Below are positions 2,469 to 20,793 of a stretch of 64,000 nucleotides of DNA, piece by piece. Origin of the DNA: an uncultured bacterium (lineage in GTDB: Bacteria > Actinomycetota > Acidimicrobiia > Spongiisociales > UBA5794). The number at the start of each line of letters is the position of its first letter. Position 1 is the stretch's first letter. Both the position numbers and the translations under genes were made by a program. The stretch spans positions 64,001 to 128,000 of the forward strand of contig CAWDDT010000010.1 in the NCBI GenBank assembly GCA_963801165.1. Direction: 5' to 3'. The notes under the pieces are model-generated. The model saw only the letters and a program-made list of their open reading frames with translations. It did not search any database and was not told the origin of the DNA.

Positions 2469-2496
2469 CCGGCACCCGACCCCGGCGTATCCCTCG

Positions 2497-2559
2497 GTCG
2501 TAGTGTGAAACCGTCGTAGTGTGAAACCGTCGTAGTGTGAAACCGTCGTAGTGTGAAAC
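2497..2559. repeat. Intergenic tandem repeat, 16-bp unit GTCGTAGTGTGAAACC x4
   Basis: TAGTGTGAAA recurs at 2501, 2517, 2533 and 2549. Confidence 0.95.
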
Positions 2560-2578
2560 GTCCCTTGGCCTGCCTACA

Positions 2579-3013: not shown

Positions 3014-3024
3014 GGGTGCGGGAT

Positions 3025-3810: not shown

Positions 3811-3882
3811 CCGGCGAAGAATGCTTGCGGCATCCACCCTTCGGTATTTACGCTGCGCCCGTCGCTTGCCTGCTGTCGGCCG

Positions 3883-5232
3883 ATGAATGGAGTGGGGTTG
3901 AAGAACGACAAACGCACCATTTTCGGCTGGGCGATGTACGACTGGGCGAACTCGGCGTACATCACCACGGCGGGGGCGATCATCGCCGCATTCTTCACGG
4001 GTGAGATCGTCTCAGACCAGGGTTGGCACGGTCTGAGTGGGGAGACTCTGTGGGCATGGGTGGTCTCGGCGGGGGCGTTGCTCTTGTTCCTGGCAATGCC
4101 GGTCCTCGGTGCGGTTGCAGACTTCAGTGCGGCGAAACGGCGTTACCTGCGCGCCTTTGCTTTCTTCGGCGCCGCGACAACTGTGGTGCTGGCGACGGTA
4201 CCTGCCAACTCGGTGGTGGCATTTCTCGGCGTCTTCCTGCTCACCAATATCGGGTTTGTCGGCGCCAACGTGTTCTATGACGGCTTCCTACCCGACATCT
4301 CGACCGACGCGACGATCGACCGGGTGTCCTCGAAGGGCTATGCGTTCGGCTACATCGGTGGTGGCCTCTATGTGGCGCTGGCGTTTGTGGCGATCAGCCT
4401 CACCAAGAACGATCTCGGTGACGTTCGTCCCGCGATGGTCCGATTGGCCATCGCCGGAGCGGGGGTTTGGTGGGTGGGCTGGTCTCTCTATTGCCTGCGG
4501 TTGTTGCCGGACTCGGGTGAGGCCCAACCGTTGCCCGCCGAGCTGGCAGGAGTTTCAACGGTGGTGGCATACGCCCGGATCGGGTTTGGCCGGACCATGG
4601 CAACCGCCCGCAAGCTGCTCGGTTTCAAGCAGCTCCTACTGTTCGTCATCGCCTTCATGATCTACAACGATGGGACCCAGACTGTCATCAATGTCAGTGG
4701 CGCATACGCCGAGGACACTCTCGGACTCGACACAACCCAGATCATCGTTGCGTTTCTGATCGTCCAGTTCATCGCCTTCGGCGGCGCCCTCTGGTTCGGC
4801 TACCTCTCCGATCGCATCGGGCCGAAGCGCTCCATCCTCATCGCCCTTGTCGTCTGGACCGCTATCGCGATCGGCGGCTACTTCCTCCCGGAAGGCAACG
4901 CCGTGCCGCTCTATCTCCTGGCGGTGGTGATCGGATTCGTGTTGGGTGGCGTCCAGGCGCTTTCCCGTAGTCTGTACGGATCGATGATCCCCGAGGAGGC
5001 TTCTGCGGAGTTCTTCGGGTTCTTCACCGTCTTCTCGAAGTTCTCGGCAATCTGGGGACCGCTGTTGTTTGGCATCGTCAGTGCAGCCACCGACTCGGGT
5101 CGGCCCGCCATCATCTCGATCGTCGTGTTCTTTGCGGTCGGTGGAGTACTGCTGAGCAGAGTGGACATCGACGCCGCCAGACAGTCCAGAGATCGCTGGT
5201 CGTTCGAAGGGGCTACAGCCGAGGCCGAGTAA
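3883..5232 (+). CDS. MFS transporter, UMF1/ATG22-like family
   Basis: GWAMYDWANSAY motif, about 12 TM segments, GGVQALSRSLY. Confidence 0.85.
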   Translation: MNGVGLKNDKRTIFGWAMYDWANSAYITTAGAIIAAFFTGEIVSDQGWHGLSGETLWAWVVSAGALLLFLAMPVLGAVADFSAAKRRYLRAFAFFGAATTVVLATVPANSVVAFLGVFLLTNIGFVGANVFYDGFLPDISTDATIDRVSSKGYAFGYIGGGLYVALAFVAISLTKNDLGDVRPAMVRLAIAGAGVWWVGWSLYCLRLLPDSGEAQPLPAELAGVSTVVAYARIGFGRTMATARKLLGFKQLLLFVIAFMIYNDGTQTVINVSGAYAEDTLGLDTTQIIVAFLIVQFIAFGGALWFGYLSDRIGPKRSILIALVVWTAIAIGGYFLPEGNAVPLYLLAVVIGFVLGGVQALSRSLYGSMIPEEASAEFFGFFTVFSKFSAIWGPLLFGIVSAATDSGRPAIISIVVFFAVGGVLLSRVDIDAARQSRDRWSFEGATAEAE

Positions 5233-5250
5233 ACCGCCAGACACGGTACC

Positions 5251-6483
5251 GTGCCTCGCATGCGGAAACTGGTCGCGATGATTCTCCCCGCCGTGCTGGC
5301 CGCGGCCTGCAGCAGCGGCGAGACCCCGGCGTCGTCGAGCTCTCTGAACACGACAACCGTATCCTCTGGAACGGCGGCCACGACGTCAACTTCCGCTCCC
5401 GATTCCACCACGGCAGGGTCAACGGCGACCACCGCCGCGACGACACAGGCGCTCCGTCCCCTGGCCGACATCGTGCTCGGGAGCACGGAAGTGTGGAACG
5501 GGTTCGAATCGCCTGTATTGATGCTGACGCCACCCAACGACTCGCGGCTGTTTGTCGTGGAACAGCCGGGACGGGTGGACGTGATAGATGGGGGAGCCCC
5601 CGAGGTGTTCTTTGACATCACCGACCGGGTTCGGTTCCAGGGCGAGCAGGGCCTGCTCGGTCTCGCCTTTCCCCCGGATTTTGCAGATAGTGACGTCTTT
5701 TACCTGGACTACGTCAACAACGACGGCGACACAGTCATCGCGTCGATGCGGGCCGATGGCAACGTTGGGCTGGTCGGCTCCCTCACCGAGATATTGCGCA
5801 TCGATCAGCCCGCGGCGAACCACAACGGCGGAATGGTCCAGTTCGGTCCTGACGGCAATCTGTGGATCGGCATGGGTGACGGTGGCGGCGCCAATGATCA
5901 GTTCGGTAACGGGCAGCGGGAAGAGACACCTCTGGCGGCTCTTCTCCGCATCACGGTGGGTCCCGGCGTTGACGGCTATCAGATACCCGGCGGCAACCGG
6001 GCGGGCGAGGTTTGGGCAATCGGCCTGCGCAACCCGTGGCGATGGACCTTCGATGGTAACGATCTGTGGATCGCCGACGTCGGGCAGAACCGTATCGAAG
6101 AGGTGGACCTGATCGATTGGCGAGACGGAACCCCCAACTTCGGTTGGTCGATACAGGAAGGCTCGTCGTGTTTCGGTGGCGGCGACTGTGACAAGACCGG
6201 GCTCGTCCAACCACTGTATGAGTACACCCACGACGAGGGCTGCTCGATCACCGGTGGTTCGGTGTACCACGGCACCGCCATTCCGGAACTGGCCGGTCAG
6301 TTCTTTTTCGGCGACTATTGCGGCGGCTGGGTGCGCAGCATCGACAAGAGCGGCAACGTCAAGGAGTGGTTCCCCGCCCGTACCTTCCCGGGCACGATCG
6401 GCTTCGGGGTCGATGCAGCGGGGGAGATCTACGTGCTGACCAATCAGGGCACGATCAACCGGCTCGTGGAGGCCGGGAACTGA
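5251..6483 (+). CDS. PQQ-dependent sugar dehydrogenase (glucose/sorbosone dehydrogenase family) lipoprotein
   Basis: Lipobox LAAAC, Ser/Thr linker, EQGLLGLAF, NHNGG, GLRNPWR, ADVGQ motifs. Confidence 0.85.
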   Translation: MPRMRKLVAMILPAVLAAACSSGETPASSSSLNTTTVSSGTAATTSTSAPDSTTAGSTATTAATTQALRPLADIVLGSTEVWNGFESPVLMLTPPNDSRLFVVEQPGRVDVIDGGAPEVFFDITDRVRFQGEQGLLGLAFPPDFADSDVFYLDYVNNDGDTVIASMRADGNVGLVGSLTEILRIDQPAANHNGGMVQFGPDGNLWIGMGDGGGANDQFGNGQREETPLAALLRITVGPGVDGYQIPGGNRAGEVWAIGLRNPWRWTFDGNDLWIADVGQNRIEEVDLIDWRDGTPNFGWSIQEGSSCFGGGDCDKTGLVQPLYEYTHDEGCSITGGSVYHGTAIPELAGQFFFGDYCGGWVRSIDKSGNVKEWFPARTFPGTIGFGVDAAGEIYVLTNQGTINRLVEAGN

Positions 6484-6486
6484 GCT

Positions 6487-7137
6487 CTATTCGGCGACCT
6501 CGAGATCGCTGATCGCCGCTCGGAATGCGGCGGCCTCCGCCCTCCGGCTCATGTCGAGCTTGTGCAGCAGCGCCGACACGTAGTTTTTGACGGTCTTCTC
6601 CGCCAGATTCAGCTCGTCTGCGATCTGGCGGTTGGTGAGCCCGTCGGCAATGAGCGAGAGGACCCGACGCTCCTGTGGGGAGAGACGATCTAGCCGTTCG
6701 GCGAGCTGCGCCTCGGCCCCGCCCGTAACGAGGGCAGCTTCTGCCTTTTCGTCGATCACGAGGTCCTCACCGGCAACGACCCTGCGTATGGTGTCGACGA
6801 GCGACTTGAGCGCCATCCGCTTGACCAGATAGCCGGAGGCACCGGCGTCGATGGCGTCGCGGAGCAAATCGAGATCCGCATACGTGGTGAAGATCACGAC
6901 CTTTGTGGCCGGGTGGCTCTCCCTGATCTTGCGAGTCGCATCGATACCGGATCCGTCACCGAGCCGGATGTCCATCAACACGACATCGGGTTCGAGACGA
7001 TCGACGCAGTCGAGAGCGTCGGCACAGTTGCCCGCTTCCGCCACGAGAGTCATATCGCTCTGGCTATCGATGTATGAGGCGACACCCGCCCTGACTACGT
7101 AGTGGTCGTCGACGACCAGAACCCGAATTGCTGCCAT
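6487..7137 (-). CDS. NarL/LuxR-family response regulator, DosR/DevR-like
   Basis: VVDDH...DVVLMDIRL receiver; GLTNRQIA...LAEKTVKNYVS helix-turn-helix typical of DevR. Confidence 0.9.
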   Translation of the reverse strand: MAAIRVLVVDDHYVVRAGVASYIDSQSDMTLVAEAGNCADALDCVDRLEPDVVLMDIRLGDGSGIDATRKIRESHPATKVVIFTTYADLDLLRDAIDAGASGYLVKRMALKSLVDTIRRVVAGEDLVIDEKAEAALVTGGAEAQLAERLDRLSPQERRVLSLIADGLTNRQIADELNLAEKTVKNYVSALLHKLDMSRRAEAAAFRAAISDLEVAE

Positions 7138-7212: not shown

Positions 7213-7881
7213 CTACTCGTCCGGCCATTCCTCTGCGGGGTATTTTGCGTCGCGATCGGCGATGTGTCGCGCCATGTAGGCCGCCGCCTCGTTGCGGTTG
7301 CGCAGACCGAGTTTTGCCAGAAGCCGGGAAATGTAGTTCTTGACTGTCTTCTCGGCGAGGAACACCCGGTCGGCGATCTCGCGGTTGGTGAGACCGTCGG
7401 CTATGAGCTCCAGGATGCGGATCTCCCGCTCGGAGAGTTGTGAGAACACCGGGTCGCCGACACTGTGGCCCCGTATCTGGTTGAAGAGTTTCGCCGTAGC
7501 CGCCGGGTCGATTACCGAGGTGCCCTCGTTGACGCTGCGGACGGCTTCGACGATACGGCCACCGTCGATTCGCTTCACTAGATACCCGGAGGCACCTGCC
7601 AGGATCGCCTCGTGGACCGTTTCCTCGTCAACGTGCGAGGACAGCATTAGAACCCGAACGTCGGGGAAGCGCTCGACGATCGTACGGCATGCGGTGACAC
7701 CGCTCATGTCGGGCAGACGAACATCCATGATCACGACGTCGGGTGAGTCATAGCCGGCACGGCGGATCGCCGAAGCGCCTGTGGCGGCCTCGCCTGCGAC
7801 TTCGATGTCGTCCTGGGACGAGAGAAGAGCCCGGAGACCCTCTCGCACCACGGGATGATCGTCTACTACCAATACACGCAA
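7213..7881 (-). CDS. Second DosR/DevR-like response regulator
   Basis: VVDDHPVVREG; GLTNREIADRVFLAEKTVKNYIS; start reassigned to TTG 7881. Confidence 0.88.
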   Translation of the reverse strand: MRVLVVDDHPVVREGLRALLSSQDDIEVAGEAATGASAIRRAGYDSPDVVIMDVRLPDMSGVTACRTIVERFPDVRVLMLSSHVDEETVHEAILAGASGYLVKRIDGGRIVEAVRSVNEGTSVIDPAATAKLFNQIRGHSVGDPVFSQLSEREIRILELIADGLTNREIADRVFLAEKTVKNYISRLLAKLGLRNRNEAAAYMARHIADRDAKYPAEEWPDE

Positions 7882-7954
7882 AGTGTTTCCTCTCGCTCCG
7901 TTCCACGCTAGCCAAATGCCCGAACCGCAGTACGTGCCATCCGCCCCGAACCGG

Positions 7955-7968
7955 GGGACATTCGGCCC
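7955..7968. promoter_or_regulatory. DosR-type box GGGAC-ATTC-GGCCC between the divergent regulator and kinase genes
   Basis: One arm mismatch to the GGGAC-N4-GTCCC palindrome of the mycobacterial DosR box. Confidence 0.55.
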
Positions 7969-7997
7969 CAACCAGAACGGCGAGGTATCGTTCGTCC

Positions 7998-9107
7998 ATG
8001 GAATCTACCGCCGAGCGTGACCGCTTCGCCGCATTGCTCGATGCTGCCGCCCAGGTATCGGAGCAGGAAGAGCTACATGGGCTCCTCGAGTCTCTGGTCG
8101 ACATAGCGATGGGTCTTACCGGTGCCGCCTTCGGGGCACTCGGAGTCGTTGGCGCCCACGGCTTCCTCGTCGACTTCATCCACAAGGGGATGCCGAAGGA
8201 GGACGTAGATGCGATCGGTCATCTCCCCCTCGGTCTCGGTTTGCTCGGTGCCATCACCCGTGGCGAGACCATCCGGGTCGACCAGATCTCGTCCCACCCG
8301 GATTCGGCCGGAATGCCGGCGGGCCATCCGGACATGCAGACGTTTCTCGGTGTGCCCTTGCGAACCCGCAACGAGGCGTTTGGGAATATCTACCTGGCGG
8401 GCAAAGCGGACGGCTTCACCGACGACGACGAGCGAACGATCGAAACGTTGTCACTCATTGCAAGTGCCGCAGTGGCCAACGTGCGGATCCACCGCCGGCT
8501 CCGGGAAGCGGCGGTTGCCGAGGATCGCGCCCGGATTGCCCGGGACGTGCACGATGACATCATCCAGGATCTCTTCGCCGTCGGCTTGTCACTGCAGGGT
8601 CTGGCGGATTCGCTCGAAGACGAAAGTGCCAGGAGGGTGGTTGGGACACAGGTCGAGCGCGTTGACGACTGCATAACGTCTTTGCGTCAGTTCATCTTCA
8701 ATCTGCGGCAACCAGGGTCCCACTCGCGCGACCTTGAGATCGAGGTGACCGAGCTTGTAGAGGAGCTAGCTGAGCCCTACTCGGCCGAGGTCGAGGTCGC
8801 CGTCGATTCGCTTGCCGACCGCTTCAGCACCGACATCACCGATGCGGTTCTACACATAGTGAAGGAAGCCACGAGCAACGCGCTCAGACACAGCAACAGC
8901 CCGCTCGTGCGTGTCCTCGTCACCGGAGGGTTCAGCAACCTGTCCGTCTCGGTGATCGACCACGGGATCGGCTTCGACGCCAACCGGTCTCACGAGGGGA
9001 TGGGTCTGGCGAACCTGCAGCAGCGGGCGGCCGATGTCGGCGGCGAGCTCGCAGTCAAGAGCAGCGACAACGGCACGACTGTGAGCCTCGTTCTGCCCAT
9101 TCGCTAG
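7998..9107 (+). CDS. GAF-domain histidine kinase, DosS/DevS-like (HisKA_3)
   Basis: HPDSAGMPAGHPDMQTFLGVP resembles the heme-binding GAF segment of DosS; RIARDVHDDIIQDLFAVGL H-box; start ATG 7998. Confidence 0.88.
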   Translation: MESTAERDRFAALLDAAAQVSEQEELHGLLESLVDIAMGLTGAAFGALGVVGAHGFLVDFIHKGMPKEDVDAIGHLPLGLGLLGAITRGETIRVDQISSHPDSAGMPAGHPDMQTFLGVPLRTRNEAFGNIYLAGKADGFTDDDERTIETLSLIASAAVANVRIHRRLREAAVAEDRARIARDVHDDIIQDLFAVGLSLQGLADSLEDESARRVVGTQVERVDDCITSLRQFIFNLRQPGSHSRDLEIEVTELVEELAEPYSAEVEVAVDSLADRFSTDITDAVLHIVKEATSNALRHSNSPLVRVLVTGGFSNLSVSVIDHGIGFDANRSHEGMGLANLQQRAADVGGELAVKSSDNGTTVSLVLPIR

Positions 9108-9305: not shown

Positions 9306-9319
9306 GGGACTTTCGTCCC
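9306..9319. promoter_or_regulatory. DosR-type box GGGAC-TTTC-GTCCC upstream of the oxidase operon
   Basis: Perfect GGGAC-N4-GTCCC palindrome, with further GGGAC half-sites at 9285, 9297 and 9328. Confidence 0.7.
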
Positions 9320-9437: not shown

Positions 9438-9587
9438 ATGACAAGTGAAGGCGAGAGCGGCAACGAGACCCAGGAGGAGTTCAAGCCCAGGGGCACCGTT
9501 GCTGTCACTGCCGCATTCGTAGTGGTGATGCTGATCCTCTGGTTCAGCGTTTACGCCATTTTGCTCTCTCGAGGGGCGACGATATGA
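9438..9587 (+). CDS. cbaD: Cytochrome c oxidase ba3-type subunit IIa (49 aa; absent from ORF track)
   Basis: MTSEGESGNETQEEFKPRGTVAVTAAFVVVMLILWFSVYAILLSRGATI resembles Thermus subunit IIa (KPKGA...WLGVYAVFFARG); GGAGG RBS; ATGA overlap with subunit II. Confidence 0.85.
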   Translation: MTSEGESGNETQEEFKPRGTVAVTAAFVVVMLILWFSVYAILLSRGATI

Positions 9588-10141
9588 GTGCGGACGCAGG
9601 CGGCGAGAAGCAGAAGATGCACATCGACGCAACGGAGATGAGCTGGATCCGTACCTCGATCATCGTGCTCGTGCTCTTTGCGATCGCCATCGCCATCGCC
9701 GGTTTCATGCTCGGGATCCAGGTCCCGACCCGGGAGAAGCGGGTCGACCCGAACACGATTGCCAACTCCGCCCCCTGGGCGGCGCCAACCGCCGATGATG
9801 TCGGCGATCCTCGCATCCAGGAGCTGGAACCGGGTGCGAAATACAACATCTACATCGTCGCCCAGATGTGGTTCTACACCCCGAACCAGATTCCGACACC
9901 GGAGTCGGGTATCACGATTCCCAAGGGGTCCGAAGTCACCTTCTACGTGACCTCGAAGGATGTCCAGCACGGGTTCCGGATCGAAGGCACAAACGTCAAC
10001 TTCATGCTGATCCCGGGTCAGGTTTCCACGCTGAAGCACACCTTCGATGAGGCGGGCACATACAACTTCATCTGCACCGAGTACTGCGGTACCGGCCACG
10101 CAGGTATGTCCGGCACGATCACGATCTCTGATACCGAGTAG
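9584..10141 (+). CDS. cbaB: Cytochrome c oxidase ba3-type subunit II (CuA)
   Basis: Single TM helix; DVQHGF and CTEYCGTGHAGM CuA ligands. Confidence 0.93.
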   Translation: MSADAGGEKQKMHIDATEMSWIRTSIIVLVLFAIAIAIAGFMLGIQVPTREKRVDPNTIANSAPWAAPTADDVGDPRIQELEPGAKYNIYIVAQMWFYTPNQIPTPESGITIPKGSEVTFYVTSKDVQHGFRIEGTNVNFMLIPGQVSTLKHTFDEAGTYNFICTEYCGTGHAGMSGTITISDTE

Positions 10142-10154
10142 AGAGGAGGCTCGA

Positions 10155-11864
10155 ATGGTTACTGAAACAACGGCGGCTCCTGTCTACGAGATCAGCAAGA
10201 CGGACAAGAGGTTCATCGGCTGGCACATCTTCATTGCGGTGACCGCACTGACAATCGGGAGCCTCTTTGGCCCACTGCAGGCTCTGGAGCAGGCAGGGAT
10301 AGATCTCTATCCGAAGCTCGACTTCCTGTTCATCCACATGAACGCGATGCCGTCGGCGTACTACCAGGGTCTCACGCTGCATGGGGTGCTGAACGCGCTG
10401 ATTTGGACGACGTTCTTCATCACAGGGTTCTCCACTCTTGCCGTGATCAGGGGTCTGAAGCGTGAGCTGGCGTACCCGCTGCTGAACCGGATCGGGTTCT
10501 GGACGATGGTGGTCGGTCTCGTCACCGCGGCGATCCCGCTGCTGGGCGACAAGGCCAGCGTCCTTTACACGTTCTACCCGCCCCTGCAGGCAGACAAGCT
10601 GTTCTACATCGGTCTGGTTCTGGTGGTTGTCGGGAGCTGGACGGAGGGTTGGGGGTTCTACTTCACCGTCGGCAAGTGGCGTAAGGAGCACCCGGGCGAG
10701 AAGCTGCCGTTTATCACGCTGGCCGTCGTGATCAACATGGTCATGTGGCAAATCGCCACCGTCGGCATCGCCGCCGAGATTCTCGGCCTCATCCTGCCGT
10801 GGGCATTCAACCTGTCAGGCGGTATCGACCCACAAATGTCCCGGACGTTCTTCTGGTTCACCGGACACCCACTTGTGTACTTCTGGCTGCTACCGGCCTA
10901 TGCGTCCTGGTACGGGATGCTTCCCAAGCAGGTCGGCGGCAAGCTATTCAGCAATACGCTGGCGAAACTGGCCTTCTGGCTCTTCCTCCTGCTGTCTGTG
11001 CCCCTCGGCTTCCACCACCAGTTCGTGGATCCGGGCGTTCCGGCCGGATGGAAGTTCATCCACTCGATGCTGACGCTTGGCGTGTTCTTCCCGTCGCTGC
11101 TGACGCTGTTCACCGTGGTGGCGTCGTTGGAATACGGCGCCAGGAAACGCGGAGGAAAGGGCCTCTTTGGGTGGATCCGGGCGCTGCCGTGGGGCGATCC
11201 GTCGGTGGCCGCCCAGCTGCTGGCAGGAATCCTGTTCATGTTCGGAGGCATTAGCGGTCTCGCCAATGCCTCATACAACGTGAACCTGGTGCTGCACAAC
11301 ACCACCTGGGTCCCCGGCCACTTCCACCTGACCGTGGCGTCGGCCGTGACCCTGTCGTTCGTCGGGATGTCGTACTGGCTCGTTCCTCACATCACGGGTA
11401 AACCTCTATGGCGTCCCAAGCTGGCAGTGGCCGGGGCCTGGACGTACTTCGGCGGCATGCTGATCTTTTCGAACGCGATGCACACAGTCGGGCTGCTCGG
11501 GGCGCCGCGGCGCACCCCGCTCGGGCTGGCTCCTTATGTTCCCAGCGAATGGAACGGCCACCTTTTCCGGGTAGCCGTCGGTGGGGCGATCATGTGGATC
11601 GGGCTGATGACGTTCGTCGTTGTCATCGCCGTCACCGCTTTCCAGCGGAAGCGGCTGCCTGCCGGCGAGTTCGTCGATATCCCGGTCGCCGAGTCGCTGG
11701 ACGATCCCAACAACATTCCATTGTGGCTCGACCGATTCAAGCCGTGGCTGATCGCAGCCGCCGTGCTGATCATTCTCGCCTACGGACCCCAGATGTTGGA
11801 TCAGATCTTCGGAATACAGTTGACGTCACCGGGATACATTCCCACATCCCCGGCGTCATTGTGA
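10155..11864 (+). CDS. cbaA: B-family (ba3-type) heme-copper oxidase subunit I
   Basis: YYQGLTLHGVLNA, GHPLVYFW (His-Tyr cross-link pair), GFHHQFVD, HNTTWVPGHFH; start ATG 10155 after GGAGG. Confidence 0.93.
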   Translation: MVTETTAAPVYEISKTDKRFIGWHIFIAVTALTIGSLFGPLQALEQAGIDLYPKLDFLFIHMNAMPSAYYQGLTLHGVLNALIWTTFFITGFSTLAVIRGLKRELAYPLLNRIGFWTMVVGLVTAAIPLLGDKASVLYTFYPPLQADKLFYIGLVLVVVGSWTEGWGFYFTVGKWRKEHPGEKLPFITLAVVINMVMWQIATVGIAAEILGLILPWAFNLSGGIDPQMSRTFFWFTGHPLVYFWLLPAYASWYGMLPKQVGGKLFSNTLAKLAFWLFLLLSVPLGFHHQFVDPGVPAGWKFIHSMLTLGVFFPSLLTLFTVVASLEYGARKRGGKGLFGWIRALPWGDPSVAAQLLAGILFMFGGISGLANASYNVNLVLHNTTWVPGHFHLTVASAVTLSFVGMSYWLVPHITGKPLWRPKLAVAGAWTYFGGMLIFSNAMHTVGLLGAPRRTPLGLAPYVPSEWNGHLFRVAVGGAIMWIGLMTFVVVIAVTAFQRKRLPAGEFVDIPVAESLDDPNNIPLWLDRFKPWLIAAAVLIILAYGPQMLDQIFGIQLTSPGYIPTSPASL

Positions 11865-11891: not shown

Positions 11892-14213
11892 TTGAGTAAA
11901 CGCGACGAAGTCCCGCTGGACGGGCCATCAGTCGACTGGCCGCTCCGCACCCGGAACAGGGTACGGAGCGGCTTGCGCGTGCTGGAGCGTTTGAGCCTGA
12001 AAGCGGAACGACCCGTGGGCAAGGCGGTTGGCTCACCCCGTCTCAACCCCTTCTACCACACGGGGACGATCTCGGTCTTTCTGTTTGGGGTGGTGCTGGT
12101 CACCGGGATCTACCTCACCGCGTTCTACCAGTATGGCTTCGCCGACTCCTACAAGGCGGTCGCCGCCATCGAGGCGAACGTGGCCGGCAGGATGGTGCGG
12201 GCGGTTCATCGGTACGCCTCGGTGGCGCTCGTCGTGACGTCTCTGCTCCACGGCTGGCGAACGTTCTTCCAGGATCGGTTCCGTGGCTCGCGTTGGGTCG
12301 CCTGGGTATCGGGTGTGGGGATGATGCTGCTCCTCTGGGTGATCGGCGTCACCGGGTACTGGCTCATATGGGACGAGCGGGCCGAGGTCATCAACCGGGT
12401 GTTTATCAGGGCGATCGACGGGATGACTCTCGGGCTCGACTTCGTCATCGACAGCGTCGTCTCGCCGGTGGCCGGCACGGGCTGGCCCTTCCTGCTGCTG
12501 ATATTCCTGATCCACTTCGGTTTGTCGATGCTGGCCGGCGTCCTCATCTGGGTACACGTCAAGCGTCTCAACCGCGCCAAACTGCTGCCGCCACGTTTCT
12601 GGATGATCCTCATCGGCGGTGCCATCGTGATCGCGGCGGTGGTATGGCCGGTCGGGATGCTGGGCTCGTTTGATCCCAACCGGCTGCCCGGAACCTTCCC
12701 CGTGGACCCGTTCTACCTGTTCTTGATGCCGCTCGGGCTCCGGTGGTCTCCGGGTTGGCTCTGGGGCGGCGTCGTAGTGGTGAGTGCTTTGGTGACCGGG
12801 ATTCCCTGGCTGCTGCGACGCCAACCGCTCGACCCCATCGTCGTGAATGCCGATCGCTGCACGGGGTGCACCCTCTGTGTCGCCGACTGCCCCTACAAGG
12901 CGCTCGAGATGGTGCCTCGCGAGGACGACACGAAGTACCGCCAACTCGCCGTGGTGCTCGAGGATCTATGCGTGGCGTGCGGTATCTGCGTCGGCAGCTG
13001 TCCGACCGAGGCGCTAACGCTGGGCGATCAGCCCGCTGAGGCGTTGTGGGACGAAGTGCGCCATCTCGCCGGGACGGGTGACAGCCCCCGAATCGTGTTG
13101 ACCTGCGAGCGGCACGCGCTACAAGGTGCCGCGACACACGTCGGTGAGGGGGGTCTGGACATCGACGGCAAGCCGGGCCACGTCGTAGCGGTGCCCTGCG
13201 TGGGCATGATTCACCCGGGGCTGGTGGGAGCGGCCCTCGAGGCCGGGGCAGGTGACGTCCAGATCATCGGGTGCCCTCCGGCCGACTGCACCAACCGGGA
13301 GGGAAACGACTGGTTGCAGGCGCGGCTCGACCGGGAGCGGGTCCCCCGTCTCAAACGTGAGTACGTAGACGCACGGATCACCACAGACTGGATACCGCCC
13401 GACTCGTTCGGCGAGGCCGTCGCCAACCCGGGCGGACAGCCGATCGCCGATCCCGAGGAGCGGCCGGATCGGCGCCGTCAGATACCGGCGCTCATCCTCG
13501 TGACCGTCGTCACGCTCGTTTCGATTGCGCTGACCAACATCAGGTTCACTCCGGCTACGGCAGGCGAGACTGTGATCGCTCTCGCCGTCGACCACGAGGG
13601 CGGGGAGCCGCTGATGGGGTTCGAGAACATGAAGCCTGCGGTAGAGGAAGGCATCCCGCCGCGACTCGTTGTCGAGCTAGACGGACGGTCGGTGTTCGAC
13701 AAGACCTATGACGTAGTGCATGCCGACGGTGGTGAGACCGCTCTCGGCTACGACCTGATCGAGGTCGAGCCCGGCCAGCACCAGGTCAAGGTCACCATGT
13801 TTGACCGATCCGACCAACCGGGGGGCTTCGTCGTGTTCGACGACGTCGTTGGGCTGAAGGTCGGTCAGATCTTCAACGTTGCGTTGAACGACGAACCGGT
13901 GACCACAGAGGCCGACGCGGGGCGTTCTCTGTTCATGGAGAACACGTTCGGCGTCAACACGGGGTGCCGGCTGTGCCACTCGCTCGAACCCGGCGTCGTG
14001 TTGGTTGGTCCTTCGCTCGCAGGGGTTGCCACCCGAGCCGAAACCCGGGTGCCCGGCTTGACGGCCGCTGAGTACCTGCGCCAGTCGATCGTCGACCCCA
14101 ACGCTTACGTCGTCGACGGATTCCCCAAAGGTCAGATGTTCCAGAACTTTGCCCAGGTGCTGACCGGGGAGCAGATCGATAGCCTCGTCGCGTTCCTGCT
14201 GACTCTCAAGTAG
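11892..14213 (+). CDS. Fusion protein: cytochrome b + 2x[4Fe-4S] ferredoxin + MvhD/FlpD-like Fe-S domain + TM + cytochrome c
   Basis: Heme b His pairs (HRYAS...LLHGWR; IHFG...WVHVK), CTGCTLCVADCP and CVACGICVGSCP, VPCVGMIHP and GCPPADCTNREG, CRLCH. Confidence 0.85.
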   Translation: MSKRDEVPLDGPSVDWPLRTRNRVRSGLRVLERLSLKAERPVGKAVGSPRLNPFYHTGTISVFLFGVVLVTGIYLTAFYQYGFADSYKAVAAIEANVAGRMVRAVHRYASVALVVTSLLHGWRTFFQDRFRGSRWVAWVSGVGMMLLLWVIGVTGYWLIWDERAEVINRVFIRAIDGMTLGLDFVIDSVVSPVAGTGWPFLLLIFLIHFGLSMLAGVLIWVHVKRLNRAKLLPPRFWMILIGGAIVIAAVVWPVGMLGSFDPNRLPGTFPVDPFYLFLMPLGLRWSPGWLWGGVVVVSALVTGIPWLLRRQPLDPIVVNADRCTGCTLCVADCPYKALEMVPREDDTKYRQLAVVLEDLCVACGICVGSCPTEALTLGDQPAEALWDEVRHLAGTGDSPRIVLTCERHALQGAATHVGEGGLDIDGKPGHVVAVPCVGMIHPGLVGAALEAGAGDVQIIGCPPADCTNREGNDWLQARLDRERVPRLKREYVDARITTDWIPPDSFGEAVANPGGQPIADPEERPDRRRQIPALILVTVVTLVSIALTNIRFTPATAGETVIALAVDHEGGEPLMGFENMKPAVEEGIPPRLVVELDGRSVFDKTYDVVHADGGETALGYDLIEVEPGQHQVKVTMFDRSDQPGGFVVFDDVVGLKVGQIFNVALNDEPVTTEADAGRSLFMENTFGVNTGCRLCHSLEPGVVLVGPSLAGVATRAETRVPGLTAAEYLRQSIVDPNAYVVDGFPKGQMFQNFAQVLTGEQIDSLVAFLLTLK

Positions 14214-14215
14214 CT

Positions 14216-14650
14216 ATGACGTCGATGCGGGCGACGTCGATGCGGGCGAGGTCGATGCGGGCGGCGGCGGCGGCTCTGGTGCTCCTGGTGACCGGATGTG
14301 GGGGAGGCTCCGCCCCGGCTGCGACGGTAGACGTACCGGTGGCGACGCCGCGACCGGTGGAGACGCTTGGCAGAGAGCTCTTTGCTGAGAGGGTGATCGG
14401 CACGAACCCGGGGTGTGTCACCTGTCATTCGCTCGAGGAGGGTGTCACCCTTGTCGGCCCGTCGCTGGCTGGCGTGTCATCACGCATCGAAGGAATGAGC
14501 GATTCCGACTACGTCCGGCAATCCATCGTCGACCCCGATGCCTATGTCGTCCCGGGGTTCACTGCCGGCCAGATGAGTCAGAACTGGGGCGAAGTCCTCA
14601 CCGAGGAGCAGGTCGACAGCCTGGTCGATTTCCTGGTGACGAGCGGCTGA
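14216..14650 (+). CDS. Cytochrome c lipoprotein
   Basis: Lipobox VTGC; CVTCH heme-binding motif; similar to the C-terminal cytochrome c domain of the upstream fusion (VGPSLAGV...RQSIVDP). Confidence 0.88.
   Translation: MTSMRATSMRARSMRAAAAALVLLVTGCGGGSAPAATVDVPVATPRPVETLGRELFAERVIGTNPGCVTCHSLEEGVTLVGPSLAGVSSRIEGMSDSDYVRQSIVDPDAYVVPGFTAGQMSQNWGEVLTEEQVDSLVDFLVTSG
14218..14262 (+). repeat. 15-bp unit GACGTCGATGCGGGC x3 at the gene start (in frame)
   Basis: Encodes MTSMRATSMRARSMRA. Confidence 0.85.
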
Positions 14651-14704: not shown

Positions 14705-15133
14705 CTACTTGACCGGGAATGCCTCTTCGGTGCCGCTGGCGCCCTCTCCGGCGACCGTGCGCTCGCCGTGCAGCTCGCCATCGTCGTTGATTTCGTAGCG
14801 GGCGGTACCTTGTGAGGCCGAGTCGAATCCCTGCCACTCGACATCCAACTCGGTGCCGGTGACCGTTCCCTTTCCCGTCTGGATGCTCCCGGTGATGATC
14901 CACTGCATGTTGACGACGTCGGGTTGATCGGTGGCGACGATCTCGAGGGTGCCCCCGTATTCGGTGCCTTCCGGGTCCACCCCGTTTACGTAGTAAGTGC
15001 CGACAAGACTGCCGTCGAAACCCTGCTGCGGGAAGGCGCACGCGGATGCGGTGATGGCGACCAGCAGAGCTAACGTAATAGGAGCCCGTAGCAAGCGGTT
15101 GCGGCGCGGACGCGTTTGGTTGGCAGGGGCCAT
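14705..15133 (-). CDS. Hypothetical lipoprotein
   Basis: Arg-rich N-terminus, hydrophobic stretch, ASAC lipobox, beta-rich mature part; start ATG 15133. Confidence 0.65.
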   Translation of the reverse strand: MAPANQTRPRRNRLLRAPITLALLVAITASACAFPQQGFDGSLVGTYYVNGVDPEGTEYGGTLEIVATDQPDVVNMQWIITGSIQTGKGTVTGTELDVEWQGFDSASQGTARYEINDDGELHGERTVAGEGASGTEEAFPVK

Positions 15134-15203
15134 CGGGTCTCCGGATCGATTGCAGTCGGGGAGTATATATGGAGCCCCGGATGGTGCTTCCACGAGGAGA
15201 CGC

Positions 15204-15872
15204 ATGCGCAAGAAGGTGATCATCGGCTCGGCCATTCCGGTGGTTCTGATCATCGGTGCCGCGGTTGCGTTCGCCGTTTTCCAGCCCATCCAGGTGCTGC
15301 CTCGTATCCGGTTGGCGCCGGGCTATCTGCTGGTGAACCAGGATGGTGAGACCGTGTCCTCCGAGGACGTTCGCGGTGACATCGTCCTCTACGACTTCAC
15401 CTACAGCGGTTGCGGCGACGAGTGCGCAGCGATGAATGACACCATGGCCGCAATTCAGAGCCGTCTCGACGAGATCGACGCCGGCGACACGGATATCAGG
15501 TTCATGACGGTCTCATTCGACCCGGAGCATGACACGCCCGGCGTATTGCGCGACTACGCCGCCACACTCGGCGCCAATACCGCGCAATGGCAGTTCGTCA
15601 CCGGCGACCCGATCCACGTGACCAATGTCGTGAAATCCGGTTTCGAGGTCTATTACCAGCCGCAGCCTGACGGCACGTACACGTTCGCTCCCGTGTTCGT
15701 CCTGGTGGATGGGTGGGGAGTGATCAGGGGTGAGTACCGCTACCAGACCAATGCCTCCGATGCCGACAAGATCGTGCACCACATGGACATCCTCGGCGAG
15801 GAGGTGCGCAATGCACACGGTGCCGCCGCCCTGGCATACGAGGCAGCCCACTTCTTCCTCTGCTACCCATGA
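15204..15872 (+). CDS. SCO1/SenC family protein (atypical)
   Basis: FTYSGCGDEC CxxxC motif, VSFDPEHDTP; start ATG 15204 after GAGGAG. Confidence 0.85.
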   Translation: MRKKVIIGSAIPVVLIIGAAVAFAVFQPIQVLPRIRLAPGYLLVNQDGETVSSEDVRGDIVLYDFTYSGCGDECAAMNDTMAAIQSRLDEIDAGDTDIRFMTVSFDPEHDTPGVLRDYAATLGANTAQWQFVTGDPIHVTNVVKSGFEVYYQPQPDGTYTFAPVFVLVDGWGVIRGEYRYQTNASDADKIVHHMDILGEEVRNAHGAAALAYEAAHFFLCYP

Positions 15873-16483
15873 AAGGTAGGCGTCTCTGGACGGGTATTGC
15901 GGTCGGGCTGCTCGGCGTGCTGGTGGCGTGGTTCGTGATCTTGCCGCATTTCGTCAACAGGGTCCGCCCCCACATCTTCGGGGGGACCGTTGTCCAGTCG
16001 AACCAGAAGGTCCCCAACACCGAGCTCATGTCGGCCAACGGACCGGTCCGGCTCTCCGATTTCGCCGGCAAGTTGCTGGTTGTGTACTTCGGCTACACCT
16101 ACTGCCCGGACGTCTGCCCGGCGACCCTGAGCAAGCTGGCCGATTCCATGGAAATCGTGGGTGACAAGGCAGACGACGTCCAGGTGATAATGGTGTCGAT
16201 CGACCCGGCGCGGGACACACCAGATGTCATACAGGACTACGTGACCCACTTCGATCCCGATTTCCTCGGACTGACCGGTGACGAGGCTTCGGTCAACCTC
16301 GTGGCTACGCTCTTCGGCGTCACCTACCAGCGGGTCGACAATGCAGAGGCCACCAGCTACACGATGGATCACACCTCAACCGTTATCCTCGTCGACCGTG
16401 AGGGATACCTGAAGCTCGTGCTCCCCTTCGAAGGATCAGCGGAGCAGATCGCATCCGACATCGACTTCTTCCTGAGCAAATGA
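15869..16483 (+). CDS. SCO1/SenC family copper chaperone
   Basis: YFGYTYCPDVCP, SIDPARDTP, YTMDHTS. Confidence 0.92.
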   Translation: MKGRRLWTGIAVGLLGVLVAWFVILPHFVNRVRPHIFGGTVVQSNQKVPNTELMSANGPVRLSDFAGKLLVVYFGYTYCPDVCPATLSKLADSMEIVGDKADDVQVIMVSIDPARDTPDVIQDYVTHFDPDFLGLTGDEASVNLVATLFGVTYQRVDNAEATSYTMDHTSTVILVDREGYLKLVLPFEGSAEQIASDIDFFLSK

Positions 16484-17079
16484 ACACAAGACGCTGGATG
16501 ATCCCGGTTGCCGCCCTCCTGGGGGTTCTCGTTGCTTTGCTCGCGCTCTCACTGCGCAGCAAGCCGCACGAGTTCATCGGGACCGTGTTTGCCGATGAGG
16601 AGGTAGCGCCTGATTTCACACTCACCGCAGACAGTGGGGAACCGGCGTCACTCAGCGACTATCGGGGCGACGTTGTCCTGCTCTATTTCGGGTACACGTA
16701 CTGTCCGGACGTCTGCCCGACCGTGCTGGCGAATCTGGCGGCGGTGCGGGAGACGCTGAGTCAAACCGATCGGGATCGGGTCCAGGTGGTGATGGTCTCG
16801 GTCGATCCCGCCCGGGATACTCCGGATGTCTTGCATACGTACCTGGAGCATTTTGATCCTTCGTTTGTGGGGTTCACCGGCTCGAGCGATGAGATCGCCA
16901 AGGTTGCCGCCGCATACAACGTCACCTACGAGGCGCACGAGGGTACCGCCGCAACCGGGTACCTCGTCGATCATTGGGCCGGGTTCTACCTCGTTGATCC
17001 CGGGGGGAACCTGGTCGAGTCATTCAGCTACGGTACGCCTGCTGTAGACGTCGCCGCCGATGTCAGGGAGTGGCTGTGA
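16480..17079 (+). CDS. SCO1/SenC family copper chaperone
   Basis: YFGYTYCPDVCP, SVDPARDTP, YLVDHWA. Confidence 0.92.
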   Translation: MNTRRWMIPVAALLGVLVALLALSLRSKPHEFIGTVFADEEVAPDFTLTADSGEPASLSDYRGDVVLLYFGYTYCPDVCPTVLANLAAVRETLSQTDRDRVQVVMVSVDPARDTPDVLHTYLEHFDPSFVGFTGSSDEIAKVAAAYNVTYEAHEGTAATGYLVDHWAGFYLVDPGGNLVESFSYGTPAVDVAADVREWL

Positions 17080-18014: not shown

Positions 18015-18082
18015 ATCCCGGTGCCGACGGCTCGCGCCGGGCAACGCGACAATACGGTTTCGTGTCGGAGGGCCCCATTACC

Positions 18083-18112
18083 ATCGCTATCTATGGGATC
18101 GCTATCTATGGG
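18083..18112 (+). repeat. 15-bp duplication ATCGCTATCTATGGG x2 covering the nurA start codon
   Basis: Exact direct duplication. Confidence 0.85.
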
Positions 18113-19064
18113 TCAGCTCTTTGTGGAAGGATGGGCTCCGGAGTACGGAAGCCCTTATGAGGCCGATGACGCCCTTGCCGATGAGGGAAAGGTGGACGAG
18201 TCGGTCGAAGCCGACGGTCCCTGGGTTCCCATACCCGGGGTAGACGACGGCGTTGCCGAGGTGGCAATCGTCGATGGTGTTCGGCGCATCGACGCCCGGC
18301 TCACCATCGACGAACCGGCCGGTCCTATTCCCGGGATATGCGGAAGCTACGGTGTCGGTGCCGTGATCTGGAATCGGCCCGAGGCAAGGTCGGCGTTCAC
18401 CGAGATCCAGATCGAGCGGCTGGCGGTGTTCGGCAACGGGGCCGGCGCTCCTATCCCCGCCGATGGGCCCGTTATCTACCGATCGGAATCGGTGCCCGAC
18501 TCGGATCCCGGGGCGCTCATCAGACACTTCCACGGTGCGATGCGCAAGGCGGAAGCGCGGTTGTCGGAGCGGTTGGGCCAATCGGGCCTGTTCGTAGTCG
18601 CCGACGGGCCGATCAACGACCTCTCCGCAACAGAGAAGGTCGGCTACATCAAGTCGCACCGGGCCCCGTACCTGTCGGAGCAACGAGCGCCGGTGATCGG
18701 CAGAGTGCGGGCGGGGGAGCGGACGCCGCTGTTCGTTATCGGCAAGGGCGGGCAGTACGAGCGCTACTCGTGGTACCAGCGTCTCGCCGATCTCCCCGGC
18801 GGGCACTCGTGGACCGGGGTGGTCAGGTGTGAGGTGTCGAGCGCACTCCGGCTCGCTCAAGCGATTGCGATCGCCAACCGGACGACGGCGTTGCTGCCGC
18901 TGCTTGCGTCGCAGGCCCACATAGATCCACGGGCTCCGCAGAACCTCGTGCCGATCGCCGCACTCGAGCGCGAATTGAGAAGACGCCTCGGCGACTCCGG
19001 TTTCGTCTACCGTGCTCTGAGGACCGCGGTAGCCGCCGGCAGCAGGGAGGCTCGTGATGGTTGA
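18108..19064 (+). CDS. nurA: NurA-family nuclease
   Basis: AIVDGVRR, VVADGP, GYIKSH motifs and C-terminal APQNLVPIAALERELRR; immediately upstream of herA. Confidence 0.75.
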   Translation: MGQLFVEGWAPEYGSPYEADDALADEGKVDESVEADGPWVPIPGVDDGVAEVAIVDGVRRIDARLTIDEPAGPIPGICGSYGVGAVIWNRPEARSAFTEIQIERLAVFGNGAGAPIPADGPVIYRSESVPDSDPGALIRHFHGAMRKAEARLSERLGQSGLFVVADGPINDLSATEKVGYIKSHRAPYLSEQRAPVIGRVRAGERTPLFVIGKGGQYERYSWYQRLADLPGGHSWTGVVRCEVSSALRLAQAIAIANRTTALLPLLASQAHIDPRAPQNLVPIAALERELRRRLGDSGFVYRALRTAVAAGSREARDG

Positions 19065-20793
19065 CAGCAGCAGCAACGACAACGGGGTCGGGCGAGTCCT
19101 CGGTACCGAGCACACTTCCACCCGCGAGTTCCGTGTTGTCCTCGACGAGACCGAATACCTGCAACTCGACGATCTCGTGGTTGTCCGGACCCAGGTCCCC
19201 AAACAGGGGGAGGTCCGCACCTACGGTGTCGTCACCGAGGTCGCGGCCGTTTACGAGGGCGCCACGTTCGAGAGTGACACGCACCGGATCGCAGTCGACG
19301 GCACGATGCCAGGGGCCAAGGTGAGATCGGCGGAGGTAGCCATCACCCGGGTGGACCCTGAGCTGTGGGTATCCCCCGACCCCGGCGAGAAGGTCGAGCG
19401 GGCCCGGGGGCTGGAGCGGGACAAGGCTCTCTACGTTGATGAGATGGGGCGACCGCTCCCCATCGGCTTGGGACGAGACGGTGAGCCGGTGTTCGTCGAT
19501 CTCGATTTCTTCGACGGTCGCAAGGGCGGCCACATGTCGATCTCGGGGATAAGCGGTGTCGCCACCAAGACCTCGTTTGCCCTGTTCTTTCTGCGCCTCC
19601 TGGCGGCCCGACCCGATGTTCTCGGCGAGGGTGCCGCCAACCTGCGAATCCTCGTCTTCAACGTCAAGGGCGAGGACTTGCTCTGGCTCGACAAGAAGAA
19701 CCGGTACTTCGACCCCGGCGACGCCGACACCTGGCATAGCCTCGGCGTCGAGCCCGGCCCGTTCCCCTCCGTGTCGTTCTGGGCGCCACCGCGGGTGCAG
19801 ACCGGTGACGTAGTCATCCCCGATACCGGCGGACGTCAGGAAGGCGTGGACGCTTTCGGGTGGACGCCACGCGAGTTCATCGACGACGGGTTGTTGCGCT
19901 TCTTGTTCACCGACGCCAGCGACAGTCGCAACCAGATCCCGTTCATAGAGGAGCGCGTGCGGGCGCAGTTGCAGAGGTACGCCGTCGATGTCGCCGGCCG
20001 GCCGGGCGCCGTCGTGCTGCGCGACCCGGTCGAAGGGCACGCCCCCGGAGCCAGCGTCGTGCCCAACCGGGGCGAGCGGATCATCACGGAACTGCGCACG
20101 CTGGTCGACGCGGTCGAGGAGTTCGTCGACCCCGAAGACGGGGAGCCCGATCAGCGTTGGACCGGGCGGGTCCAGGCAGGCACCGTTTCGGCGTTTGTCC
20201 GCCGGCTGCACTCGGCGGCCCATCGTCTCGGGCACCTGGTCAGGGCCGGTGACAGCCGGCAGATCGACCGCAGAGCGGCTCAGGTCACCGTGGTGGCCAT
20301 CCAGACGCTCCACGACCTCGGTCAGCGGTTCGTGGTGGGTGCACTGCTGGCGGAGACGTTTGCCGAGAAGGAGCAAACCGGGCAGCGCCTTCCGCTCTCG
20401 GTGATCGTGCTCGATGAGTTGAACAAATACGCCCCCAGGGAGGGCAGCAGCCCGCTCAAGGAGATGTTGATCGATATTGCCCAGCGGGGGCGGTCGCTGG
20501 GTGTGCTCCTGGTCGGGGCGCAGCAGACCGCGTCGCGGGTGGCTTCGGAGGTGATGGAGAACGCGGCGCTCAGGGTGGCGGGGCGTCTCGACGCCGCCGA
20601 GGCGGAGCGCTCCGAGTACGGCTGGATGCTGCCGTCGACCCGGGCACGGGCACGTCTTCTCAAACCGGGGACGATGGTGGTCAGTCAACCGGCGCTTCCG
20701 GTTCCTCTCGTCGTCGAGTTCCCGTTCCCGCCTTGGGCGACGCGTAAGGAGGAGGTCGACACGGCCGATAGCGACCCGTTTGCCGGGCTGTGA
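19054..20793 (+). CDS. herA: HerA/FtsK-family ATPase
   Basis: N-terminal HAS barrel, variant Walker A SGISGVATKTS, VLDELNKYAP Walker B, RGRSLGV...AQQ. Confidence 0.85.
   Translation: MMVDSSSNDNGVGRVLGTEHTSTREFRVVLDETEYLQLDDLVVVRTQVPKQGEVRTYGVVTEVAAVYEGATFESDTHRIAVDGTMPGAKVRSAEVAITRVDPELWVSPDPGEKVERARGLERDKALYVDEMGRPLPIGLGRDGEPVFVDLDFFDGRKGGHMSISGISGVATKTSFALFFLRLLAARPDVLGEGAANLRILVFNVKGEDLLWLDKKNRYFDPGDADTWHSLGVEPGPFPSVSFWAPPRVQTGDVVIPDTGGRQEGVDAFGWTPREFIDDGLLRFLFTDASDSRNQIPFIEERVRAQLQRYAVDVAGRPGAVVLRDPVEGHAPGASVVPNRGERIITELRTLVDAVEEFVDPEDGEPDQRWTGRVQAGTVSAFVRRLHSAAHRLGHLVRAGDSRQIDRRAAQVTVVAIQTLHDLGQRFVVGALLAETFAEKEQTGQRLPLSVIVLDELNKYAPREGSSPLKEMLIDIAQRGRSLGVLLVGAQQTASRVASEVMENAALRVAGRLDAAEAERSEYGWMLPSTRARARLLKPGTMVVSQPALPVPLVVEFPFPPWATRKEEVDTADSDPFAGL

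Follow-up and report, generated by a model that had tools for sequence, protein, structure and literature searches.

The stretch analyzed (the window; 64,000 nucleotides of contig CAWDDT010000010.1, positions 64,001 to 128,000, from an uncultured bacterium of the class Acidimicrobiia) contains an operon on its plus strand in the order coxIIa, coxB, coxA, an open reading frame (ORF) predicted to encode a cytochrome b fusion protein, a cytochrome c lipoprotein gene, and three SCO1/SenC genes. The fusion ORF (positions 11892 to 14213, plus strand, TTG start, 773 aa) is predicted to encode in one chain a six-helix dihaem cytochrome b with helices A to F and an ef loop carrying VDPF (residues 36 to 308, positions 11997 to 12815), a cytoplasmic 2x[4Fe-4S] ferredoxin domain (residues 316 to 380, positions 12837 to 13031), a cytoplasmic MvhD/FlpD-type domain with a four-Cys site (residues 397 to 509, positions 13080 to 13418), a seventh transmembrane helix leading from the cytoplasm to the periplasm (residues 527 to 547, positions 13470 to 13532), a periplasmic beta-sandwich of no named family with a conserved H568 (residues 554 to 669, positions 13551 to 13898), and a periplasmic class I cytochrome c with C692, C695, H696, and M749 (residues 673 to 773, positions 13908 to 14213). 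A frame artefact as the origin of this ORF was ruled out by its GC content at third codon positions (GC3, 0.83) and by full-length relatives. The initial annotation had proposed that the fusion is a noncanonical substitute for complex III or a transmembrane wire feeding cytochrome c and the adjoining oxidase.

Pfam models matched the fusion protein as Cytochrome_B (PF00033; residues 48 to 223, 47.4 bits against a cut-off of 27.2), two Fer4 units (residues 316 to 376), and FlpD/MvhD (PF02662; residues 402 to 504, 40.3 bits against a cut-off of 22.3). Cytochrom_C (residues 676 to 773, 20.5 bits) fell slightly below its cut-off of 21.3, and Cytochrom_B_C (PF00032) gave no match. The sub-cut-off match was settled by a fold search, in which a model of residues 520 to 773 gave Z 12.1 to 7zs0_A and Z 11.9 with 34% identity to 1w2l_A, and the domain was thus assigned to class I. 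In profile searches of the PDB, cytochrome b6 was the best sequence match (E 3e-30, residues 36 to 231), the Fe-S part matched HdrA C-termini and polyferredoxins, the MvhD domain matched the MvhD chains 9sw2_D and 5odc_D, and the C-terminus matched the dihaem protein Kustd1711 and the cytochrome c domain of caa3 oxidase (1w2l_A, E 1.7e-12). The C-terminal Fer4 and MvhD part of the NCBIfam model HdrA2 aligned with residues 317 to 501 (70.6 bits). By homology, the MvhD-type four-Cys site is predicted to bind a [2Fe-2S] cluster.

An AlphaFold2 model built from 95 sequences (predicted local distance difference test [pLDDT], 89.8; predicted template modeling score [pTM], 0.85) placed helices A to F at residues 53 to 77, 97 to 126, 132 to 158, 198 to 223, 235 to 251, and 287 to 302, followed by the Fe-S and MvhD region (residues 316 to 511), the seventh helix with an RRR stretch N-terminal to it, the beta-sandwich strands (residues 560 to 667), and a helical cytochrome c (residues 673 to 769). 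Foldseek matched the first ~300 residues best to QcrB or cytochrome b of bcc, bc1, and b6f complexes (E from 4e-7, 290 to 320 columns). Counts of Lys and Arg in the loops agreed with the modeled topology under the positive-inside rule. With the Fe-S domains inside and the cytochrome c outside, the modeled topology is one that allows electrons to pass between cytoplasm and periplasm. The beta-sandwich yielded only generic immunoglobulin-like or unrelated membrane-protein domains in VIA-align (Z ≤8.0), no named Pfam family (DUF4399 at E 0.011 was the sole match when the domain was scanned alone), and Atlas feature scores of at most 0.84 with no named family.

Conservation was counted in an alignment of 95 relatives of the fusion. 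The haem b ligands H106, H120, and H222 were kept in all 95 sequences, and H208 was kept in 94, the exception being a local misalignment. The eight Cys of the two CxxCxxCxxxCP motifs (beginning at residues 323 and 360) and C405, C436, and C461 of the MvhD domain were invariant, C466 and the CxxCH motif (CRLCH at residue 692) were each kept in at least 90% of the sequences, and M749 was kept in 86 of 95; taken together, these cofactor motifs contain every one of the 14 Cys in the chain. The window protein reads V-D-P-F where PEWY is expected; the Asp (D272) is invariant (95/95), and the Trp usual there is kept in only 10 of 95 relatives. Short forms of the protein read [LV]DW[FY]. H56 was kept in 92 of 95 relatives and aligned, in the PDB profile alignment, with Cys35 of cytochrome b6, the haem ci-binding Cys of the CxGG motif (Kao and Hunte 2014, PMC4122944). 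The split cytochromes b6 encoded elsewhere in the host genome have C (CLGG, contig C11) and Y (contig C9) at this position.

The window oxidase is assigned to the B-family (ba3-type), cytochrome c-dependent oxygen reductases, because its CoxA carries the active-site motif GHPLVYFWLLP with the cross-link Tyr and its CoxB carries CuA ligands. The first gene of the operon, coxIIa (positions 9438 to 9587, plus strand), encodes the 49-aa single-helix subunit IIa of ba3-type oxidases (PF08113 CoxIIa, 33.9 bits against a cut-off of 20.7). It is followed by coxB (positions 9584 to 10141, plus strand; PF00116), encoding subunit II, whose CuA ligands H129, C164, C168, H172, and M175 were invariant in 21 sequences, and by coxA (positions 10152 to 11864, plus strand; PF00115, 308.7 bits), encoding B-family haem-copper subunit I. 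The coxA frame is open from 10047, with the Met at 10152 as the likely start. Downstream of the fusion, the cytochrome c lipoprotein (positions 14216 to 14650, plus strand; PF00034, 31.2 bits; lipobox VTGC) is 61% identical to fusion residues 666 to 771 and is paralogous to the cytochrome c domain of the fusion. Next on the plus strand are three SCO1/SenC genes for copper chaperones, arranged in tandem (positions 14997 to 15872, 15869 to 16483, and 16480 to 17079; PF02630 in all three), with overlapping stop and start codons; the first has an N-terminal extension of ~100 residues without a family.

These results bear out the gene-level description in the initial annotation. The single-ORF fusion was recovered by hidden Markov models (with the cytochrome c by fold) and has conserved ligands; the four haem b His, both CxxCxxCxxxCP motifs, the MvhD-like Cys set, the transmembrane helix, and the C-terminal CxxCH are present, as are the variant at the PEWY position and the paralogous lipoprotein. 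The modeled topology would permit electron transfer, and the architecture co-occurs with B-family oxidases, two points that the initial annotation had listed for checking. It had overlooked the beta-sandwich on the periplasmic side, the gene for the 49-aa CoxIIa, and the three Rieske/cytochrome b loci that the genome carries elsewhere.

Relatives of the fusion were numerous. A word-index search (8000 candidates scored) returned 1042 proteins at E ≤1e-3, and an exhaustive profile search of 1.84 billion representatives (the library clustered at 50% identity, with a single sequence standing for each cluster) returned 775 at E ≤1e-30, spread over at least six phyla. Full-length relatives (45 to 97% identity) came from metagenome-assembled genomes of Acidimicrobiia, Actinomycetota, and Chloroflexota and, where named, were called "hydrogenase iron-sulfur subunit" or "4Fe-4S binding protein." Among the best 150 profile matches, most ended near profile position 640 to 673, after the beta-sandwich and without a cytochrome c, fewer extended to the cytochrome c, and some ended after MvhD. 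The cytochrome c-bearing form was found in Acidimicrobiia/Actinomycetes and Chloroflexota records, and the form without it was found mostly in Proteobacteria and other phyla, a distribution that would fit tethering of the carrier where a soluble one cannot be kept.

In species genomes, 319 stretches encoded a relative, and 80 of these loci were kept and searched with the window proteins by tblastn. COX1 was present in 70 of the 80, and 9 of the 10 loci lacking it were cut by a contig end, with <2.1 kb of upstream DNA. Where at least 5 kb of upstream sequence was available, COX1 lay upstream in 45 of 46 loci (long forms, 13/13; mid forms, 2/2; short forms, 30/31), the exception being L072. Within the host class, a sample of 201 genomes contained the fusion (E ≤1e-30) in 10, all of them members of the same taxonomic order as the host; a close COX1 (63 to 74% identity) was present in nine genomes of the sample, and the fusion was directly adjacent to it in all nine. 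Distant B-type COX1 copies (45 to 46% identity; G108, G123, and G018:C29) had no adjoining fusion. Judged from these gene neighborhoods, the fusion is tightly and anciently linked to CuA-type haem-copper enzymes.

COX1 matches covering the active site (69 loci) read GHPLVY in 26 cases and GH[SP][SA]QQ[IV]N, without the Tyr, in 43. The GHPLVY enzymes were partnered by long forms, by two forms cut by contig ends (L032 and L034), and by one form without cytochrome c (L035). Murali et al. 2024 (PMC11214002) use loss of the Tyr as a criterion for nitric oxide (NO) reductase-like families, and by this criterion the Tyr-less COX1 neighbors of short forms are NO reductase (NOR)-like in their active-site motif. 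These neighbors may be sNOR, for which a gene cluster norSY-senC-orf1 has been named in ammonia oxidizers (PMC4940428); the short form might then correspond to orf1. Six short-form loci scanned with Pfam had the order coxB, coxA, (UbiA haem O synthase), SCO, and cytochrome b/Fer4/FlpD, and the short form was adjoined by a ~170-aa homologue of fusion residues 525 to 670 (hhalign probabilities of 92.8 and 96.5; Atlas rows agree), built from a single transmembrane helix plus a beta domain. In one such cluster (L038), which holds the Fer4/MvhD form and a haem-copper enzyme lacking the Tyr, a further gene (L038:4399-6411) encodes a 670-aa protein that joins a cytochrome b to a BenC-like 2Fe-2S/FAD/NAD reductase (207.7 bits); its cytochrome b shares the HxG and DWF signatures of the fusion and has a His at the H56 position. 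Two short-form clusters, L038 and L064, encode besides the main COX1 an extra, very divergent short COX1-like protein (L038:8484-9905 and L064:3125-4402; 473 and 425 aa; PF00115, 39 and 58 bits).

Canonical bc complexes were found alongside the fusion. Three Rieske/cytochrome b loci occur in the host genome (4.55 Mb, 98% complete), none of them on the contig of the window (C10). Contig C5 carries ctaE-qcrC-qcrA-qcrB. The locus on contig C9 (L094, 34000-44000, ORFs 1857-6642) comprises a cupredoxin, a GltD-like Fe-S flavoprotein, cytochrome b6, subunit IV, Rieske protein, and cytochrome c. The locus on contig C11 (L093, 256000-268000) lies beside a cbb3-like oxidase and comprises a ferredoxin, cytochrome b6, subunit IV, Rieske protein, and multihaem cytochrome c. 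The Rieske family PF00355 had five matches, on contigs C4, C5, C9, and C11, and no match on C10, in agreement with the earlier remark that the cluster has no Rieske gene. The genome also has an A-family oxidase. The L094 flavoprotein (676 aa, GltD-like) contains Fer4_20, Pyr_redox_2, and two Fer4 domains, and we take this locus to resemble anammox-type bc complexes with an NAD(P) oxidoreductase subunit. The L093 ferredoxin (147 aa) is of the 2x[4Fe-4S] kind and is the locus's own, its multihaem cytochrome c has 532 aa, and the locus is divergent from a cbb3-like oxidase with fused COX1 and FixO.

All five fusion-bearing relatives tested encode a canonical cytochrome b with a Rieske gene within ~2 kb, and in two genomes (G023:C1:1455806-1457327 and G082:C8:169102-170586) a cytochrome b6 and Rieske pair lies 4 to 5 kb upstream of the ba3-fusion cluster. 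Because the host and these five relatives keep canonical Rieske/cytochrome b genes, the fusion is an addition to bc complexes, and replacement of complex III is ruled out. The overall proposal of the initial annotation thus survives in part: the functional tie to the B-family oxidase is upheld by linkage across phyla, and the substitution for complex III, for which qcrCAB elsewhere in the genome had been named as a check, falls with the qcrC-qcrA-qcrB genes on C5 and the two further loci.

Upstream of the operon, ORFs annotated as a NarL/LuxR-family response regulator (positions 6487 to 7137, minus strand; Pfam Response_reg and GerE, with MadR/NarL as the best NCBIfam matches, below cut-offs) and a GAF-domain histidine kinase of the HisKA_3 type (positions 7743 to 9107, plus strand; Pfam GAF_2, HisKA_3, and HATPase_c) were found, together with a 137-aa ORF without a family. 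A perfect palindrome, GGGACTTTCGTCCC, lies at positions 9306 to 9319, ~120 bp upstream of coxIIa, and resembles the DosR/DevR box; it is the sole hit of its kind in the window. The palindrome GGGACNNNNGTCCC occurs once in the window; at least one occurrence was obtained in 22 of 100 shuffles, so that it is not significant alone. The regulator, kinase, and palindrome next to the operon hint at control by hypoxia or NO. Beyond the SCO1/SenC genes, two large ORFs without a Pfam family (positions 18021 to 20793; 347 and 579 aa; GC3, 0.75 and 0.84) precede SbcD- and SbcC-like genes.

The fusion probably supplies the adjoining oxidase with electrons. The explanation favored here, though held at a little less than an even chance, is that it serves as a dedicated redox partner of one CuA haem-copper subclade (in this genome, the ba3-type enzyme), passing electrons outward from a low-potential cytoplasmic donor to CuA; it is preferred because of the cofactor sites, the topology, the fold, the linkage to CuA enzymes, and the coexistence with bc complexes. 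A low-potential donor, not encoded in the operon, would feed the MvhD cluster, from which electrons would run via both [4Fe-4S] clusters into the inner haem b and across the membrane to the outer haem b. The outer haem would then reduce the fused cytochrome c (tethered through the seventh helix and the beta-sandwich), the lipoprotein cytochrome c, or both, and cytochrome c would reduce the CuA of the oxidase. Such a route to oxygen would bypass Rieske/bc complexes and possibly the quinone pool and would provide a high-affinity oxidase with a redox valve.

We infer the direction of flow, the donor, the contact with the oxidase, and the physiological role from several features. Outward flow would be downhill, because low-potential Fe-S clusters lie inside, two b haems lie between, and a cytochrome c resembling CuA donors lies outside, and outward movement of electrons would also be favored by the membrane potential. 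In caa3 oxidases the cytochrome c domain of subunit II hands electrons to CuA, and the similarity of the fused cytochrome c to that domain above others counts for a role as CuA donor. BenC-like reductases oxidize NADH, and the fusion of such a reductase to a cytochrome b in L038, at the corresponding place in the chain, favors flow from cytoplasm to periplasm. A prediction of the complex between the CuA domain of CoxB (residues 50 to 185) and the fused cytochrome c (score 0.01, mark 0.32) weighs neither way on binding.

A wider form of this explanation, advanced more tentatively, would make the family hard-wired conduits built on a bc-type cytochrome b, in which a cytoplasmic reductase module (Fer4 and MvhD, or 2Fe-2S/FAD/NAD in the L038 relative) passes electrons through two b haems to CuA-type O2 or NO reductases without a Rieske protein and without an obligatory quinone; the clade-specific H56 would then be the sign of a remodeled connection on the inner side, where the inner haem meets the first cluster.

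Several observations weigh against a dedicated outward partner. The Pfam scan of neighboring genes revealed no cytoplasmic donor in the operon, and a literature search for biochemical or genetic data on any member returned only Kao and Hunte 2014. The short-form gene sits among assembly genes (haem O synthase and SCO). An outward wire would dissipate membrane potential and so conserve less energy than the bc route of the cell. Finally, the invariance of D272 at the Qo position is accompanied by invariant residues in the periplasmic-side loops (W149, G152, G155, Y156, W157, D161, R163, P253, G255, L276, and P280), which a bare wire would not need and which suggest a retained quinol or docking site.

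These last residues lead to the main rival, which is close to the "noncanonical complex III" of the initial annotation and is considered unlikely, if still the strongest competitor: a Rieske-less quinol:cytochrome c oxidoreductase, in which menaquinol would be oxidized at a retained Qo-like pocket and the tethered cytochrome c would stand in for the Rieske head by accepting the first electron. The second electron would pass from the outer to the inner haem b and on to the Fe-S chain, or the Fe-S chain would feed a quinone on the inner side. Retention of an entire cytochrome b, in which helices E and F and the ef loop are present in addition to the four-helix haem bundle, is consistent with this view, as are the acid at the PEWY position, the [LV]DW[FY] motif of the short forms, the high conservation of the outer loops, and a dip in pLDDT at residues 685 to 687, just N-terminal to CxxCH, which could mark a flexible cytochrome c segment. 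Kao and Hunte 2014 (PMC4122944) argue that a whole cytochrome b with its Qo motif can serve other complexes. The Qo Trp, however, is retained in roughly a tenth of the relatives as counted above, compared to 96% of canonical cytochromes b (PMC4122944), and the Cytochrom_B_C model has no match. Short forms have neither a cytochrome c nor a Rieske protein and would lack an obvious first acceptor, quinol oxidation alone leaves three cytoplasmic clusters without a role, and canonical Rieske/cytochrome b complexes are already encoded in all six genomes tested.

Proximity to assembly genes raises a different, improbable possibility, that the fusion is a maturation factor acting as a transmembrane reductase for the CuA/CuB metal centers, for example by reducing Cu(II) or keeping the thiols of SCO or CuA reduced. 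CcoG is the cupric reductase of cbb3 oxidases, and this proposal is analogous in logic; a membrane part with 2x[4Fe-4S] and a periplasmic beta-sandwich also resembles the CcoG layout. Of the 46 loci with 5 kb or more of upstream sequence, 37 have SCO/SenC genes beside the fusion gene, a UbiA-family haem O synthase adjoins in L039 and L068, and in the window three SCO genes come directly after the fusion operon genes. Against this, the fusion protein had no Pfam match to FixG_C, Fer4_18, or Fer4_5 at E ≤0.1, two b haems and a full cytochrome b would be elaborate for a chaperone, and the caa3-like fused cytochrome c with a second cytochrome c gene better fits electron supply at substrate level. 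Reverse or bifurcating operation, in which quinol oxidation pulled by the oxidase would send a second electron inward to a low-potential cytoplasmic reductant, is highly improbable even though MvhD and HdrA-like Fe-S modules are typical of bifurcating complexes and the energetics of menaquinone might in principle allow it, since inward movement opposes the membrane potential, the ubiquinone span in Proteobacteria is presumably too small, the module of the BenC-type relative normally oxidizes NADH, and Pfam identified no flavin or HdrA-like bifurcating site in the fusion protein.

B-family oxidases and Tyr-less NOR-like enzymes have a bearing on how organisms live at low oxygen and on the production of nitrous oxide, and their electron supply is known for few organisms. 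If the fusion is a dedicated redox partner, this conserved protein would add a missing component to B-family and NOR-like respiratory chains and would indicate that an intact cytochrome b can function in the absence of a Rieske partner. The conduit form of the proposal, if true, would define an unrecognized and widespread branch of aerobic and denitrifying respiratory chains. The fusion is a concrete target for asking whether a cytoplasmic reductant can reach a terminal oxidase without bc complexes.

The core of the fusion is already in print without a function. A "PDWF-FeS clade" of three cytochromes b that carry Fe-S or flavin modules in the same chain and have no Rieske gene, from Magnetospirillum magneticum AMB-1, Turneriella parva, and Alicycliphilus denitrificans, was described by Kao and Hunte 2014 (PMC4122944, Table S8). 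The window protein agrees with this clade in its fusion of cytochrome b, 4Fe-4S, and MvhD modules and in the lack of a Rieske gene in the cluster, and the Alicycliphilus ferredoxin-flavin fusion placed in the clade is comparable to the reductase fusion of L038. The window motif is VDPF rather than PDWF or PDWY, and the available portions of that account mention no seventh helix, beta-sandwich, fused cytochrome c, haem-copper link, or function (PMC4122944). One such protein is listed in an appendix table of PMC8756737. A full-text literature search retrieved these two sources and no characterized member, and the seven supplementary files of Murali et al. 2024 that were searched contain no mention of cytochrome b, 4Fe-4S, ferredoxin, MvhD, or hydrogenase iron-sulfur proteins. 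The caveat in the initial annotation that the architecture might prove to be an already characterized complex does not apply. The family is large, and its role is known here by inference.

Comparison with characterized systems places each module separately. The cytochrome b shares the fold of Rieske-complex cytochromes b, their four His with 13-residue spacing on helices B and D, and the acidic residue of the ef loop, but has neither a Rieske partner nor a third helix of the subunit IV type. Unlike cytochrome b6, it has the nearly invariant H56 at the haem-ci Cys35 position, and its inner side is fused to Fe-S domains. The Fer4 and MvhD part matches MvhD and the HdrA C-terminus of Mvh-Hdr and of HdrA2 of Methanosarcina, with the four-Cys site conserved, but among the neighbors scanned with Pfam there was no HdrA flavin domain, HdrB/C, or hydrogenase, and the module is instead carried on a membrane cytochrome of an aerobic chain. 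Although CcoG/FixG invites comparison, FixG-type Fer4 and immunoglobulin-like FixG_C domains were not matched at the threshold given above. The C-terminal domain shares the class I fold of the caa3 subunit II cytochrome c (1w2l) and Kustd1711 (7zs0) at 27 to 34% identity, but is fused to a cytochrome b protein rather than to subunit II. NADPH oxidases and ferric reductases combine a cytoplasmic reductase module, two stacked b haems, and an external acceptor; the likeness to them is one of logic, clearest in the BenC-type relative, and with an unrelated haem domain it is an analogy only.

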